The notes under the pieces are model-generated. The model was given only the letters and a program-made list of their open reading frames with translations. It ran no database searches and had not been told where the DNA came from. A program made the position numbers and the translations under genes. Below, one piece after another: positions 2,539-53,800 of a DNA stretch of 64,000 nucleotides. This DNA is from a virus, in IMG/VR virus record IMGVR_UViG_3300010412_000005, positions 12,546-76,545 of that record; one strand, 5' to 3'. Numbering within the stretch: the stretch's first letter is position 1; each line of letters starts with the position of its first letter.

Positions 2539-4239
2539 ATGCCTAGTAACATTGGTTCCAACATCTTCAGCACGGTCAATCGCTGCGCACCAGCGATAGG
2601 CACGAGCTACGACAGTTGCGGAACCGTGACCCGGTGTAATGTGATCGGGGCGACTCCGTCCGATCTCGAAAGCATTTTCACCGATGGCACGGACTTCCGA
2701 GACATGTCGTCGCTGTTGGCTGTGCAGTTCGAGATGAAGGCTTGCGGAACTCGCATCAATGGTCTGTTCGACTTCTTGATGGCCAGCTCTCGCAACTTCA
2801 GCGGCTTCATCAACAAGAAACGGATTCGCGGAAGCGAGTCGCTTGTTGAGCCGTTCATCCTTGGACAGCAGAAGTCCATCATCAACGACGAGTATTGGGC
2901 AGTCGTCTCTGGCTCTGGAGACGCGGCTTCCTATCAGGTGCACGTAGTCAACCGCTACGGCATCGAGCTGGATACCGCGTGGTTCGTGCCTGAAGGCAGA
3001 GTGTTCATCTTCTCTCGCACCGCTGGCGGATCTGCTACCCGCACCGCTTGGCGTATCGTCTCTTCGGAGGATTCCACCTACGCCGGTCAGGCTACGATTC
3101 TTCTCACGCTCACGTCTGAGAACGCTGGTTCCTACATGAGCGCTGCGAAGCTGACGTTCCCAACGACTGGCTTCCTGGTGCTCGGCACCAACAACGTCTC
3201 CGACTGGGAGCGCTACTGCCATAACCGGCCTGCGCTCAACCCGAACCGCTATGTGCCGTTCTGGTTCCAGACCAGCCGATGGACGATGTGCACGGACTCG
3301 CTCTACGAGGAGTGGTTCAACAAGCTCCTGACGACCAACGAATACTTCCGTCAGTTCGGTGATGTGAACATCGCTGAGCGTAACCGGCAGTATGCCATGC
3401 TGTTCCAGCGCGAGTGGCTGAACAGCTTCTTCTGGAACAAGCCGATCTCGGCCAACCAGACGTTGTCTCTCTGGAAGAACCTGGAGAAGATCTACACCTA
3501 CGGTGGTTCTCCGCTGTATCTTCCGAACGAAACCCGCTGCGTTGGCTTCCGCGCCAATGCCGTTGGTGTTTACGAGCAACTCTACCAGTGCGGTCAGGTG
3601 CTCGATCTGCAGAATCAGCAGCTCAACATCATTGAGTTGCTCGACAAGATCTACGCGATCCACCGATCTCGCAGCTCTCAGGGTAAGGTTGCCGATTCTA
3701 TCGACATCTACACGGACTCGTTCACGGCCCATCTGTTCCACCGTGCGATGATCCGCTACTACAACGCCCAGTATGAGGGTCTCGCTCGGTTCAATATCGA
3801 GGTTCAGGACGGCGAGCATGGTGTGCTCGGGTTCCGCTGGAGCAGCTACTACCTGCTGTTCCCCAAGGGTGTGACGATCAACATCATCACGCACTTCTTC
3901 TTCGACGACATTGGCGATGCCGGTGAAGCCGAAGACATGACCAGCACCGCTCGGTTCCTGTGGATTCTGGACCTTGGTGGTGGAATCTATCCTGGCATCA
4001 TCGCCTCCAACCGAAAGGTCTTCACGACCGGCAGACTGGAGGATCTGGCCAAGGTGGACAGCGCGTATGCGTGCGTCATGGAGAATCCTACCCAGGAAGT
4101 CTCCCTGAACTCTGTCACCTGGACTGGCGTTGTCGAGTGTCCGCCAGACAACCTGATCATTGAGAACTTCCGAGATGTGATCCCCGATCACGACGAGAAG
4201 TCTGGTGATTATGGCGATGTCTACACCTACATCGACTAA
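2539..4239 (+). CDS. probable major capsid protein
   Basis: 566 aa, strong C-ending codon bias, follows scaffold, followed by an intrinsic terminator. Confidence 0.7.
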   Translation: MPSNIGSNIFSTVNRCAPAIGTSYDSCGTVTRCNVIGATPSDLESIFTDGTDFRDMSSLLAVQFEMKACGTRINGLFDFLMASSRNFSGFINKKRIRGSESLVEPFILGQQKSIINDEYWAVVSGSGDAASYQVHVVNRYGIELDTAWFVPEGRVFIFSRTAGGSATRTAWRIVSSEDSTYAGQATILLTLTSENAGSYMSAAKLTFPTTGFLVLGTNNVSDWERYCHNRPALNPNRYVPFWFQTSRWTMCTDSLYEEWFNKLLTTNEYFRQFGDVNIAERNRQYAMLFQREWLNSFFWNKPISANQTLSLWKNLEKIYTYGGSPLYLPNETRCVGFRANAVGVYEQLYQCGQVLDLQNQQLNIIELLDKIYAIHRSRSSQGKVADSIDIYTDSFTAHLFHRAMIRYYNAQYEGLARFNIEVQDGEHGVLGFRWSSYYLLFPKGVTINIITHFFFDDIGDAGEAEDMTSTARFLWILDLGGGIYPGIIASNRKVFTTGRLEDLAKVDSAYACVMENPTQEVSLNSVTWTGVVECPPDNLIIENFRDVIPDHDEKSGDYGDVYTYID

Positions 4240-4314: not shown

Positions 4315-4755
4315 ATGCCAAAGTTCTTCAAAAAAGAAATCCCCTCACGTCCACTGTATTTGCCCATCGGCAGGCCGATTACCTTCGAGCACTACGATGA
4401 CGACTACGGATACCTCAAAACTGATGATGGCTACATCATCGACCAACTATTTCAATGCATAGCTTCCTCTCAGGGTGGCGTATCAGAGGTAACCGAAGCG
4501 GAATACATGGACTGGCTAAAAAAAAAGAGCAGCATGACATTGCCGCAGCTGCGGCAGAGAGAGTCAATCGGCCCAGGAGGACGAAGAAGAGCCGGGTTCG
4601 GTCAGGTTGCAGCGCCTGTGGTCACTGACGAGCGCACCATTATTGGAACGGCTAACGATGCACCTATTACGAACGTCGCAACGCCTCAGCGAAGTGAGGG
4701 GTTGAAGGTTGAGCGCACGTTCGTGAAACCGCGAATAGGCAAACTCAATGATTGA
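4315..4755 (+). CDS. hypothetical virion-module protein
   Basis: 146 aa, overlaps start of next gene. Confidence 0.65.
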   Translation: MPKFFKKEIPSRPLYLPIGRPITFEHYDDDYGYLKTDDGYIIDQLFQCIASSQGGVSEVTEAEYMDWLKKKSSMTLPQLRQRESIGPGGRRRAGFGQVAAPVVTDERTIIGTANDAPITNVATPQRSEGLKVERTFVKPRIGKLND

Positions 4756-5629
4756 GCCAGAGTCAGCAATCACTTACACGACGTTCACCGACTTTTGCTC
4801 GCGGGTTCGGAAAATTGGTTTTCCTGACGGAGTGGGCGAAACATTGGTAACTGCGCACACGAACTGGGTCAAAAACGCATTGATCAAGGCGCAGCGATAC
4901 ATCGCGTGCATGCGCAAGATCCAGGTTAGCTTTTACTACAAGGATCAGGTCAATGATCACTGTGGTGTGAGCACATTCCAGGGACCGCGTGGGAAGATCA
5001 ATGCAGTCTATGCGTTCAAGCCTAACGACCCAACAGCATCAGTTGGCAGCGAAGATGAGGATGCGCTCTGCAGGAAGTATTTCTACAAAGCCGTAACGCC
5101 TCAGCACATCACTAATTGGTCTCGCATAAATGACTGTAGATGGCGAGATCCTTCGACTGTGGATTGGCAGACTGGTGCTGAAGTCTGCTATCCATACTAC
5201 GACTCTGACACTGAGGAAGATGACTGCAAGTGGAAGTATGAAGAGAAGTTCTTCGCTCGCGGTCAGACAGGCCAGATCTACATGGCTCCTCGATTCCCAT
5301 GCGGATACATAGTTGCCGTCCACTGGGAGGGAATCAGAAGGAAGTGGGAATCTTCAGATGCTGTCCCTGATGACGAAGACCTGATTGACTGGGCTGCTTC
5401 GTATATGCAAGTCGAGCACATGCTCAGGAACGACCATGACGCTGGAGGCTTGCTTGCTGCTATGCAGATGTCTGAGCGGACAAAGTTCGCAGACCTGATG
5501 TATTGGTGTAATGAGGAGCGAATGATGGCTGCCAAGATGGATGCAACGTCTGGCATCGACACCGGCAACCTGCAGGAGATGTTCCAGTCGATTTACCCGC
5601 TGCCGACTACTGACGCAGCTAACCCATAA
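4748..5629 (+). CDS. probable head-tail adaptor (tail tubular A-like)
   Basis: 293 aa; size and position between capsid and nozzle-like gene. Confidence 0.45.
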   Translation: MIEPESAITYTTFTDFCSRVRKIGFPDGVGETLVTAHTNWVKNALIKAQRYIACMRKIQVSFYYKDQVNDHCGVSTFQGPRGKINAVYAFKPNDPTASVGSEDEDALCRKYFYKAVTPQHITNWSRINDCRWRDPSTVDWQTGAEVCYPYYDSDTEEDDCKWKYEEKFFARGQTGQIYMAPRFPCGYIVAVHWEGIRRKWESSDAVPDDEDLIDWAASYMQVEHMLRNDHDAGGLLAAMQMSERTKFADLMYWCNEERMMAAKMDATSGIDTGNLQEMFQSIYPLPTTDAANP

Positions 5630-51815: not shown

Positions 51816-52559
51816 TTAATGAGTCGTGTCATTGGCAACCTCCCCAACAAACGCGTCGAGATAGTTGATGCAATCAGCCACGTTGCCTGCGTTCTGGCTC
51901 ATGCGATCACGCAGCAGCTGAAGCCTATCACGTAGTAGTGACCATCTGTCTTGCAAGTCTCCAACAGTTTTGTTCGCATCGTTTCTCAGGTCCTGCAGCT
52001 GTGACAACATGCCTTTGTTGCGCCGGTCCAACGCCTCGATCACGCCGACCTTCTCTTTGAGCGCATCGTTCGTGACATCGAGCCTACGTTTGATCTCATC
52101 TAGCGACTTGACTAGATTGTTGTTCTCGCTCTTAACCCCTGCACACTCTTGCGCGATTCTGCTATTCTCACTCACCAGCTCTCGAATGCGCTCGGCTTGC
52201 ATTTCGTTGACATCGTCAAACTTGACCTTGTCAAACTCCTTCAGGTCATGAAGCTCTTTCTGCGTGGCATCGAGAGCTTTCGCCAGCTTAACGCATTGGT
52301 CATTTGCATAACGCTTATCCTCATACAGCCTGCGGATATAATTCTCAAGGGCATCGACTTTCCATGAACATCCCTTAGCGAATCCAGGAACAGTGATGCG
52401 AATATCCCCACCTTCTGCCTTCATTGCCTCCAACTCAGCGCTCTTGCGCTCGTAACGCTCGTCTTGCTCATTCAATGTCTTGAGTAAGGCTGTGCCTAAC
52501 TCTGCGTTCGCTTTACATAGATCAACGAACGTCTGCACCGGCATCTCTGCTACTTTCAT
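51816..52559 (-). CDS. long coiled-coil protein
   Basis: AAGGA upstream of ATG 52559; extended heptads; directly downstream of the RAMP gene. Confidence 0.7.
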   Translation of the reverse strand: MKVAEMPVQTFVDLCKANAELGTALLKTLNEQDERYERKSAELEAMKAEGGDIRITVPGFAKGCSWKVDALENYIRRLYEDKRYANDQCVKLAKALDATQKELHDLKEFDKVKFDDVNEMQAERIRELVSENSRIAQECAGVKSENNNLVKSLDEIKRRLDVTNDALKEKVGVIEALDRRNKGMLSQLQDLRNDANKTVGDLQDRWSLLRDRLQLLRDRMSQNAGNVADCINYLDAFVGEVANDTTH

Positions 52560-52591
52560 AATGGTTCTTTCCTTGTGTTGTTGTGTGTGAA

Positions 52592-53194
52592 TCAAAGGAT
52601 CTCGTAGCTGAATCTCCCTGTTCCGCTGTTGCGCCACTGCCCAAACCCACGAAGAGCACCGTAGTCAAGCCACTCGATGAGACACTTCTCGTATGTGTCA
52701 TCAAGAAGAAGTGTTTCATACTCAATCCAGCTGCCTTCTGGAACAACTTCACTGTTCGCGAGCGCAACACGCTCTCCCTGCATAGTCGTTATACGCAATG
52801 GGCGCTGGCATGATCCTATCTTGCCTCCTTCAGGAAGATTGATTGGTATCCTGCGTGGGAACACGAAGATCAATCCATCAATGATCTTCTTGTATGCTCT
52901 AAGCTTTTTCGATTGTGTGTCAGGAAGCCTAGCCAGCATACCGCACGCATCTTTATACGACCCTTTGATCTGGTAGTCCCAATACATAGGACGTCCATCA
53001 TCCATGCGTGGAAACACTGACTGCAGTTTGCCTTCAACAATCTCAGGTCCAAGGGCAGCAATCTCCTCTTCAAGCGAGATTGCATTGGGTCCTTTGCTCG
53101 CAATGAATTCCTTGTGGATCTCTGGATTAGACGATGCCGTTCCGAGAACCTTCTCGTTAAACGTGACACGAACCTTGATTCTTTTCTTTGCCAT
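52592..53194 (-). CDS. stand-alone Cas7/Csm3-like RAMP-superfamily protein (200 aa)
   Basis: N-terminal strand IKVRVTFNEKVLG, YQIKGSYKDAC (KG motif), SEVVPEGSWIEY, C-terminal G-rich loop GFGQWRNSGTGRF; GGAGAG 7 nt before ATG 53194. Confidence 0.8.
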   Translation of the reverse strand: MAKKRIKVRVTFNEKVLGTASSNPEIHKEFIASKGPNAISLEEEIAALGPEIVEGKLQSVFPRMDDGRPMYWDYQIKGSYKDACGMLARLPDTQSKKLRAYKKIIDGLIFVFPRRIPINLPEGGKIGSCQRPLRITTMQGERVALANSEVVPEGSWIEYETLLLDDTYEKCLIEWLDYGALRGFGQWRNSGTGRFSYEIL

Positions 53195-53201
53195 ATCACT
53201 A

Positions 53202-53264
53202 CTCTCCGTTTCGGTCATGCTGTGACCATCATCAGCGCATCAGCATTAGATGCGGACGTGAGAA
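53202..53264 (-). ncRNA. type III hammerhead ribozyme
   Basis: UUCUCAC-GUC | CGCAUC-uaaugcu-GAUGCG | CUGAUGA-U | GGUCA-cagca-UGACC | GAAA-CGGAGAG: core, three stems and complementary loops (UGCU/AGCA). Predicted cut between 53255 and 53254. Confidence 0.88.
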
Positions 53265-53294
53265 GGCTGGGGCAACTATTGTCACCCCAGCCTT
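53263..53294 (-). promoter_or_regulatory. 10-bp hairpin between array and ribozyme
   Basis: AAGGCTGGGG...CCCCAGCCTT perfect inverted repeat, 12-nt loop region. Confidence 0.75.
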
Positions 53295-53296
53295 TG

Positions 53297-53800
53297 TGTG
53301 CCTCTGCATTGCCGCTCCACTCAGTTCCGCGCCGTTCCCTCACTCATCCGTCGCCAACACATCGGTGCCTTGCTCATCCGTAGCGAGTCGACACGATGCC
53401 TGTCCTTTCCCCTCACTCGCTATGCTGTTCGGCTCCATTCATTTCCTTGGCCCGTCCAATCTCTGCCTCACCATTCCATTTCCTTGCACGTCATTTCCTT
53501 TCCTTCGCTTCTCCTCGCCGTTCTGTTCCGTTCTATTCTCTGGCGTATCGTCTCCACTCCATGCTTCTCCACCGCTACTCATCGCTACACTACGCCGTTT
53601 CGGTTCCGCTTTGTGCTGAGCTTTTCTAGTGCTGCTCCATGCTAATCTCTTCGATTCGGTTCCACAGCGATTCCCCTCCTATCTTTTCCTTTCCACAGCA
53701 CTTCCGTTCGAAGGTTTGCCATTCCGCTGCCATGCAGCGCGTCACTGTTCCTCTTCTACGCCACGCTGTTAGCTACTCTGCGCATCTGCTCTATTGCTTT
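53297..53800 (-). repeat. non-coding degenerate pentamer array (NG[A/C]+NN), candidate guide/structural RNA
   Basis: About 90 units with G every 5 nt and one 6-nt unit per block; blocks of 26/31/36 nt mostly start GGA; no minus-strand ORF over 53297-53768. Confidence 0.85.

Follow-up and report, generated by a model that had tools for sequence, protein, structure and literature searches.

VIPR systems, which are related to CRISPR and have only recently been described, read DNA by means of gapped guide RNAs, the maturation of which has barely been explored. Systems of this kind, including those with ribozyme-containing arrays, have already been described in preprints that appeared in 2026. According to one of these (10.64898/2026.04.26.720920), VIPR comprises a phage-encoded RAMP protein (Vipr), an accessory gene (vap) and guide RNAs (vrRNAs) that are composed of YNNGG pentamers 'or a related consensus', and it occurs in seven types; this and a second preprint (10.64898/2026.10.21.760802) indicate that a related consensus or non-canonical units are allowed. 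The first preprint also states that the arrays of types I and V are interspersed with hammerheads, and that this was confirmed by small-RNA sequencing (10.64898/2026.04.26.720920, Figs S19-S20). Hammerhead ribozymes have also been found to flank genes in phages and prophages (Perreault et al. 2011, PMC3088659). Fast cleavage depends on loop-loop pseudoknots, which have been found in hammerheads of types I, II and III (PMC3088659), and some hammerheads are reported to fall short of the score threshold of every one of the six hammerhead models in Rfam (10.64898/2026.10.21.760802).

We analyzed a phage locus in which one hammerhead motif is situated between a pentamer array and a vipr-like gene. 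The locus lies within a stretch of 64 kb (the window), and the complete genome of the phage is 76.5 kb. We consider it probable (roughly 70%) that the motif is an active type III hammerhead in the array-to-vipr transcript and that it cuts the guide array from the mRNA.

The vipr-like gene, its array and their relatives

The locus contains the following elements, in the order of transcription:

53300..53787, minus strand: non-coding pentamer array of 103 N-G-[A/C]-N-N units, probable VIPR guide-RNA (vrRNA) array
53263..53294, minus strand: G+C-rich hairpin that closes the array, 10 bp (7 G-C), inverted repeat I2, 100% complementary, candidate 3' handle
53202..53264, minus strand: type III hammerhead ribozyme, as identified from the sequence, a single descriptor match, covariance model R1 and subfamily covariation
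52592..53194, minus strand: vipr-like gene, encoding a 200-aa Cas7-like RAMP protein
51816..52558, minus strand: next gene of the operon, 247 aa, coiled-coil-rich, its ATG at 52558 preceded by AAGGAAAG, candidate accessory (vap) gene

The 200-aa protein has no match in Pfam or PHROG, and 117 viral homologues were recovered. An AlphaFold model that was built on 17 homologues (pLDDT 79) was connected by Foldseek to type VII Cas7 and to Csm3 (E 1.8e-7), and the VIA structure comparison returned Csm3 (6ae2_B) with a Z of 12.3, the top 29 entries all being CRISPR RAMPs. As modelled, the protein corresponds to the description of Vipr, i.e. a single-RRM RAMP fold with a glycine-rich loop, and its family carries a conserved C-terminal motif, G.GQWRNSG.GRF. 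Searching the PDB sequences with the family profile yielded only a marginal Cas7 match (E 0.034), and blastn of positions 52590-53800 against the GenBank phages yielded no match. Phage SUSP1 contains a 195-aa gene with period-5 arrays on both flanks, which on account of this position is presumed to be its vipr. When the family profile was compared to the presumed SUSP1 Vipr with hhalign, the two aligned end to end over 168 columns, including the G-loop (E 6e-4, at a probability of only 28.6%). Given the Cas7 fold, the period-5 array and this alignment, the locus is a divergent VIPR system. The 247-aa ORF that follows starts at the ATG at 52558 and not at the GTG at 52637; no family or DNA-binding domain could be connected to it, the matches with Pfam and PHROG being sub-threshold.

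The array, a purine-rich stretch of about 480 nt upstream of the vipr-like gene, contains no ORF of 60 aa or more on the minus strand. Its autocorrelation is 0.46 at lag 5, against a background of about 0.25, with further peaks at lags 26, 31 and 36, and it can be parsed into some 15 blocks of 5n+1 nt (26, 31 or 36 nt). The units have a G at position 2 (94 of 103) and an A or C at position 3 (93 of 103), and the resulting consensus [G/A]-G-[A/C] is not the canonical GGY motif of VIPR. As in VIPR arrays, the units combine a fixed trinucleotide with a variable dinucleotide. The arrays of the vipr clade generally show these 5n+1 blocks, which amount to a one-base phase slip per 4-7 units, the blocks starting with GGA or GGC; the pattern was seen at 53300-53787 of the window and at L001:3586-4300, L035:3580-4100, L072:2400-3000 and L075:1700-1900 and 2750-2990, and it may correspond to the 'staggered arrays' of the first VIPR preprint.

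A period-5 array with a block structure as in the window was present in all 80 vipr homologue loci. The order of array and gene is flipped within this one protein family: most of the 80 loci have the array directly behind vipr, while it is upstream of the gene in the window and in L068, L070, L072, L075 and L080. The descriptor search recovered no hammerhead beside any of the 80 homologues (483 kb in total), a search of 20 of the homologue loci with Rfam recovered no ribozyme family, and the relatives with an upstream array (L068, L072, L075 and L080) were likewise without ribozyme. The ribozyme is therefore not obligatory in this VIPR clade, and since syntenic copies of the hammerhead are lacking, the covariation described below had to come from ribozyme relatives elsewhere. 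One homologue locus contains a FuFi-1 RNA (L061:2112-2331, minus strand; RF02986, 72.9 bits), about 700 nt upstream of vipr and on the opposite strand.

The hammerhead motif and its phage subfamily

The constituents of the hammerhead are:

53257-53255, minus strand: cleavage triplet GUC, after which the RNA is predicted to be cut (C53255/C53254)
53236..53254, minus strand: stem I hairpin, 6 Watson-Crick pairs (53254-53249 with 53241-53236), loop UAAUGCU at 53248-53242
53235-53229, minus strand: core CUGAUGA, followed by one extra U at 53228
53227-53223 with 53217-53213, minus strand: stem II hairpin, GGUCA with UGACC, loop CAGCA
53212-53209, minus strand: GAAA, of which 53212-53210 form the core GAA
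53209-53202, minus strand: 3' strand of stem III (CGGAGAG), containing the Shine-Dalgarno GGAGAG at 53207-53202
53245-53242 with 53221-53218, minus strand: kissing contact of UGCU in loop I with AGCA in loop II, 4 Watson-Crick pairs

Every one of the hammerhead elements that had been listed in the preliminary description was found in its place when the sequence of the minus strand was re-read. All residues of the hammerhead core (C3 U4 G5 A6 N7 G8 A9 ... G12 A13 A14) are matched, the pair A15.1-U16.1 is present (A53209-U53256), and GUC fits the NUH rule for the triplet (H not being G). The pair G10.1-C11.1 is present too, but one U sits between A9 and this pair. Stems I (6 bp) and II (5 bp) are closed by loops, while stem III (6-8 bp) is open. 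The latter consists of three inner pairs (U53256-A53209, G53257-C53208 and C53258-G53207) and, beyond the bulged A53259, an outer part of three to five pairs, among them C53260-G53206, U53261-A53205, C53262-G53204 and U53263-A53203. According to the inverted-repeat search the outermost positions, 53263-53264, double as the base of the preceding 10-bp hairpin, so that stem III effectively has 6-7 pairs. The minimum free energy structure calculated with a nearest-neighbour model (ViennaRNA) did not give the complete active hammerhead fold; this type of folding leaves a tertiary-stabilised active fold unmodelled.

Our own descriptor search matched this position only, both in the window and in the whole phage genome. 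When the window was Markov-shuffled, loose thresholds gave 0.013 matches per 64 kb, and with the stem lengths set to those observed, none of 300 shuffles produced a match. The search with the Rfam hammerhead models that had been proposed as a check of the motif found nothing, even when the cut-off was relaxed from the gathering threshold to E≤10: no Rfam family reached its gathering score anywhere in the window, the hammerhead models were all silent at E≤10 on 53100-53700, and RF00008 (Hammerhead_3; gathering threshold 48.5 bits) had no match over the full phage genome. At E≤1 the Rfam models also missed eight analogous type III phage loci with an extra U, yet they did detect a type II hammerhead in one of these, which served as a control; we therefore attribute the silence of Rfam to a limitation of the models.

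The pattern CTGATGATGG-N7-15-CCGAAAC retrieved more than 117 loci from IMG/VR, in most of which stem II was well paired and type I or type III surroundings were recognisable. An extra U after A9 thus seems to be common in phages (more than 100 candidates in IMG/VR), and the current Rfam models appear to be blind to a populous phage form, namely type III hammerheads in which an extra U follows A9 and the loops form a kissing contact. According to the literature, hammerheads tolerate a residue between A9 and G10.1, and in a viroid hammerhead cleavage became 3-4-fold faster upon an A10-to-U change (PMC3705267, citing De la Pena and Flores 2001). By analogy, the extra U at 53228 would be compatible with catalysis.

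A covariance model (R1) was made from an alignment (A1) of 15 type III hammerheads with an extra U from other phages, with the sequence of the window left out. Run with its filters off, R1 matched positions 53263-53203 with 56.1 bits (E 3.4e-13), while the next match in the window had 10.6 bits. A second pattern scan in combination with R1 then identified a close subfamily, consisting of L138, L162, L198, L199 and two copies in L143. Three other matches of the pattern (L200, L201 and L203) were not confirmed by R1 and a fourth (L202) was poorly aligned; all four were kept outside the covariation count. In the alignment of the seven subfamily sequences (A5), 89.7% of the cells were paired, against 37-47% when the partners were slid. 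Covariation extended across stems I to III, and in stem I all six pairs varied on both sides while being 100% paired.

The preliminary description had also proposed that UGCU in loop I pairs with AGCA in loop II, as in natural hammerheads, and this was borne out: the two are complementary here, a degree of complementarity that was equalled in 2% of the loop shuffles, and the helix was 100% paired in the seven sequences, with two of its four pairs being compensatory (UCCU/AGGA and UGCC/GGCA). The kissing loops of the window are identical to those of four other phage hammerheads. The stems had in part been preselected by the model and the descriptor, but neither of these contained the kissing helix, and its covariation therefore constitutes independent evidence. 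At the level of sequence comparison, the hammerhead is confirmed as a motif, and it belongs to a phage subfamily that shows covariation.

The closest relatives (L138, L162, L198, L199 and L143) are located 6-60 nt upstream of small phage ORFs, and no pentamer array was found within 1.5 kb of any of them. As the genes on either side of these relatives are small and ordinary, and arrays are lacking in their vicinity, the ribozyme lineage shows no specific tie to VIPR; it looks like a generic phage ribozyme that in this phage has been placed at the junction of array and gene.

Several other arrangements were encountered among the phage contigs. In L143, a stretch of 900 nt on the minus strand contains three hammerheads that belong to the same subfamily (1-57, 492-549 and 818-876), surrounded by small ORFs. 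L099 has a type III hammerhead with an extra U that is missed by Rfam, just upstream of a 151-aa ORF (3899-3958, plus strand), and about 750 nt from it, on the same strand, a type II hammerhead with an Rfam score of 45.5 bits (4701-4768). In three contigs (L142, L146 and L193) a type I hammerhead with an extra U and a period-5 array are 1-2.3 kb apart.

Proposed separation of the array from the vipr mRNA

The neighbouring genes all share the minus-strand orientation. A sigma-70 scan of the interval from array through hairpin and ribozyme to gene revealed no promoter-like site, phage or host promoters possibly being of another kind, and no terminator-like site was found there either. The hairpin at 53263-53294 is present in both the MFE and the centroid fold, yet it lacks a U-run downstream and was not scored as terminator-like. 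We infer a single transcript from the shared strand, the lack of promoter- or terminator-like sites in between and the missing U-run; the placement of the hammerhead between array and RAMP gene on one strand, as originally proposed, has thereby been upheld. Given the order array-ribozyme-gene on a single strand, with no site to separate them, a cut would yield the array with hairpin and CUCACGUC as the 5' product and the mRNA of the gene as the 3' product.

Self-cleavage by a hammerhead yields a 2',3'-cyclic phosphate and a 5'-OH end. The course of events that we propose is as follows: the minus-strand transcript would run from the pentamer guide array through the terminal hairpin and the hammerhead into vipr, and once the 3' strand of stem III has been transcribed, the RNA would cleave itself at C53255/C53254. 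This would leave, as 5' product, an array that ends in the hairpin and CUCACGUC with a 2',3'-cyclic phosphate and, as 3' product, a vipr mRNA that begins with a 5'-OH and whose leader of 45 nt consists of the hairpins of stems I and II. The products would be held together by the bulged stem III of 6-8 bp, whose intermolecular form amounts to -8 kcal/mol as a duplex and to a net cofold gain of -4.4 kcal/mol (ViennaRNA); since this is weak, they should part, after which the released guide RNA would be loaded by Vipr and the mRNA translated independently. For an array that lies upstream, a terminator would silence vipr, and the ribozyme would thus provide the array with a 3' end while transcription continues. 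In this manner a single hammerhead at the junction would let the guide array precede the effector gene in one transcript.

The locus is present in public sequence runs of seven studies (marine sediment, estuary, mangrove and soil), which contain 53100-53800 or most of it, and the contigs of three DNA runs are identical to the stretch in the window, ribozyme included. A contig from a sediment metatranscriptome (52966-53437, depth 3.7) spans the cut site, and may come from precursor that is still uncut or from DNA present in the library. A sediment RNA library differed from the window at 53159, with A changed to G.

The alternative with most in its favour, though still on the unlikely side, is that the hammerhead is a generic element for processing phage mRNA, which shortens the 5' leader of the gene that follows, for reasons of stability or insulation from upstream RNA, and has no role in guide maturation, the array being processed by Vipr or by host RNases. 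The position of the closest relatives upstream of small, array-less phage ORFs fits this reading, as does the description of the same intergenic pattern by Perreault et al. (PMC3088659), and neither the descriptor search nor R1 found a ribozyme at any of the 15 boundaries between blocks inside the array. Nevertheless, the very same cut also creates a 3' end for the array, at 8 nt past the only hairpin that the array has, and elsewhere VIPR arrays do use hammerheads for guide processing (10.64898/2026.04.26.720920). We find it quite improbable that there are two separate transcripts, the array RNA ending at the hairpin (53294-53263) and vipr having a start of its own, with a ribozyme that acts on read-through or never. 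The hairpin is strong and the sigma-70 scan may miss promoter types of phage or host, but a hairpin without U-run is a poor match to a terminator, the 8 nt between hairpin and cleavage site offer no space for a promoter upstream of the ribozyme, and a complete ribozyme would have no reason to persist there. That the motif arose by chance or has decayed, and is catalytically inactive, is highly improbable: the lack of an Rfam match, the extra U and the bulge in stem III would agree with it, but they are set against an expectation of at most 0.013 per window, a match of 56 bits to the independent model R1, and kissing loops that are intact, shared with four other phage hammerheads and covarying in the variants. 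Release of the array from the mRNA by an active junction hammerhead therefore remains our preferred reading.

Translation of vipr is a separate matter. The preliminary description had placed the Shine-Dalgarno of the RAMP gene in stem III, as its 3' strand, and indeed GGAGAG (53207-53202) lies inside that strand, 7 nt before the ATG at 53194, with all four bases of its GGAG in the paired part. It had gone on to suggest that protein synthesis is thereby coupled to RNA maturation, and for this no support was obtained from the folding energies, from 14 comparator ribozymes or from the 80 hammerhead-free vipr loci. If cleavage did gate translation, the uncut stem III would hold the Shine-Dalgarno of vipr, ribosomes would load only after cutting and release, and the production of Vipr would be tied to the release of the array. 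The complete enclosure of GGAG in stem III and the weakness of this stem in its cleaved, intermolecular form speak for such gating, and the feasibility of the principle is demonstrated by engineered switches (PMC7445771). We nonetheless regard it as rather doubtful. In the calculated ensembles (ViennaRNA) the Shine-Dalgarno gains no accessibility by cleavage, its mean probability of being unpaired being 0.59 in the precursor and 0.45 in the cleaved 3' product, which is weak evidence as the tertiary fold is unmodelled. The start codon is moreover paired with codons 9-12 in a predicted hairpin (53198-53160, minus strand), with a probability of being unpaired of about 0 for the AUG in the precursor as well as in the cleaved form. 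With a fast ribozyme the site would be masked for only a short time, and the overlap may simply reflect tight packing; none of the 14 type III comparators has a Shine-Dalgarno inside stem III, and the arrangement is absent from all 80 vipr relatives examined. More doubtful still is a natural switch in which the ribosome-binding site of vipr is usable only on transcripts that have released their array, so that the ribozyme sets the ratio of protein to guide. If true, gating would be the natural counterpart of engineered hammerhead switches of ribosome-binding sites, and the presence of an effector's ribosome-binding site within a ribozyme offers a simple test of translation gating by phage hammerheads.

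Another kind of overlap was noted in two type III hammerheads (L143:818-876, minus strand, and L189:4362-4420, plus strand), which have AGGAGG in loop II and the 3' strand of stem II; in these copies the start codon follows 6-8 nt past GAAA and the ribosome-binding region is wholly within the ribozyme.

Comparison with known systems

The predicted processing resembles that of pre-crRNA by Cas6, in that a long repeat precursor would be cut beside a hairpin, to give a guide with a 2',3'-cyclic phosphate. In the case of Cas6 the catalyst is a protein, whereas here the RNA itself would do the cutting, and no Cas6-type endonuclease gene was recognised beside the array with Pfam and PHROG. With Hammerhead_3 of Rfam (RF00008) the ribozyme shares the core and the topology, stem III being open, but not a match at E≤10. 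The intergenic phage hammerheads of Perreault et al. (PMC3088659) have a gene as their upstream partner, whereas the partner here is a non-coding guide array; Rfam models of that era fail to recognise the present hammerhead. The switches that were engineered for ribosome-binding sites in E. coli (PMC7445771) likewise have the Shine-Dalgarno within a helix of the hammerhead; in them, cutting alters how accessible it is. They are synthetic, ligand-controlled and of type I, whereas the layout found here is natural and of type III, and shows no ligand domain as far as can be judged from its sequence.

The closest known systems are the VIPR arrays of types I and V (10.64898/2026.04.26.720920). These likewise combine a phage gene for a Cas7-like Vipr, a pentamer guide array and a hammerhead in the transcript of the array; in the published arrays it sets the ends of the guide RNAs. 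The units of published VIPR follow GGY/NN and are assembled into vrRNAs of 9-16 units with a pseudoknot tail, as compared to N-G-[A/C]-N-N in blocks of 5n+1 nt in the window. The ribozymes of types I and V are placed there between adjacent vrRNAs, whereas the present locus has a single one, past the last block and at the junction with vipr, and, in a further difference from the arrays as described, it is the stem III of this junction ribozyme that contains the Shine-Dalgarno of vipr. The combination of a single ribozyme at the junction with an overlapping Shine-Dalgarno sets this locus apart from the published ribozyme-interspersed arrays.
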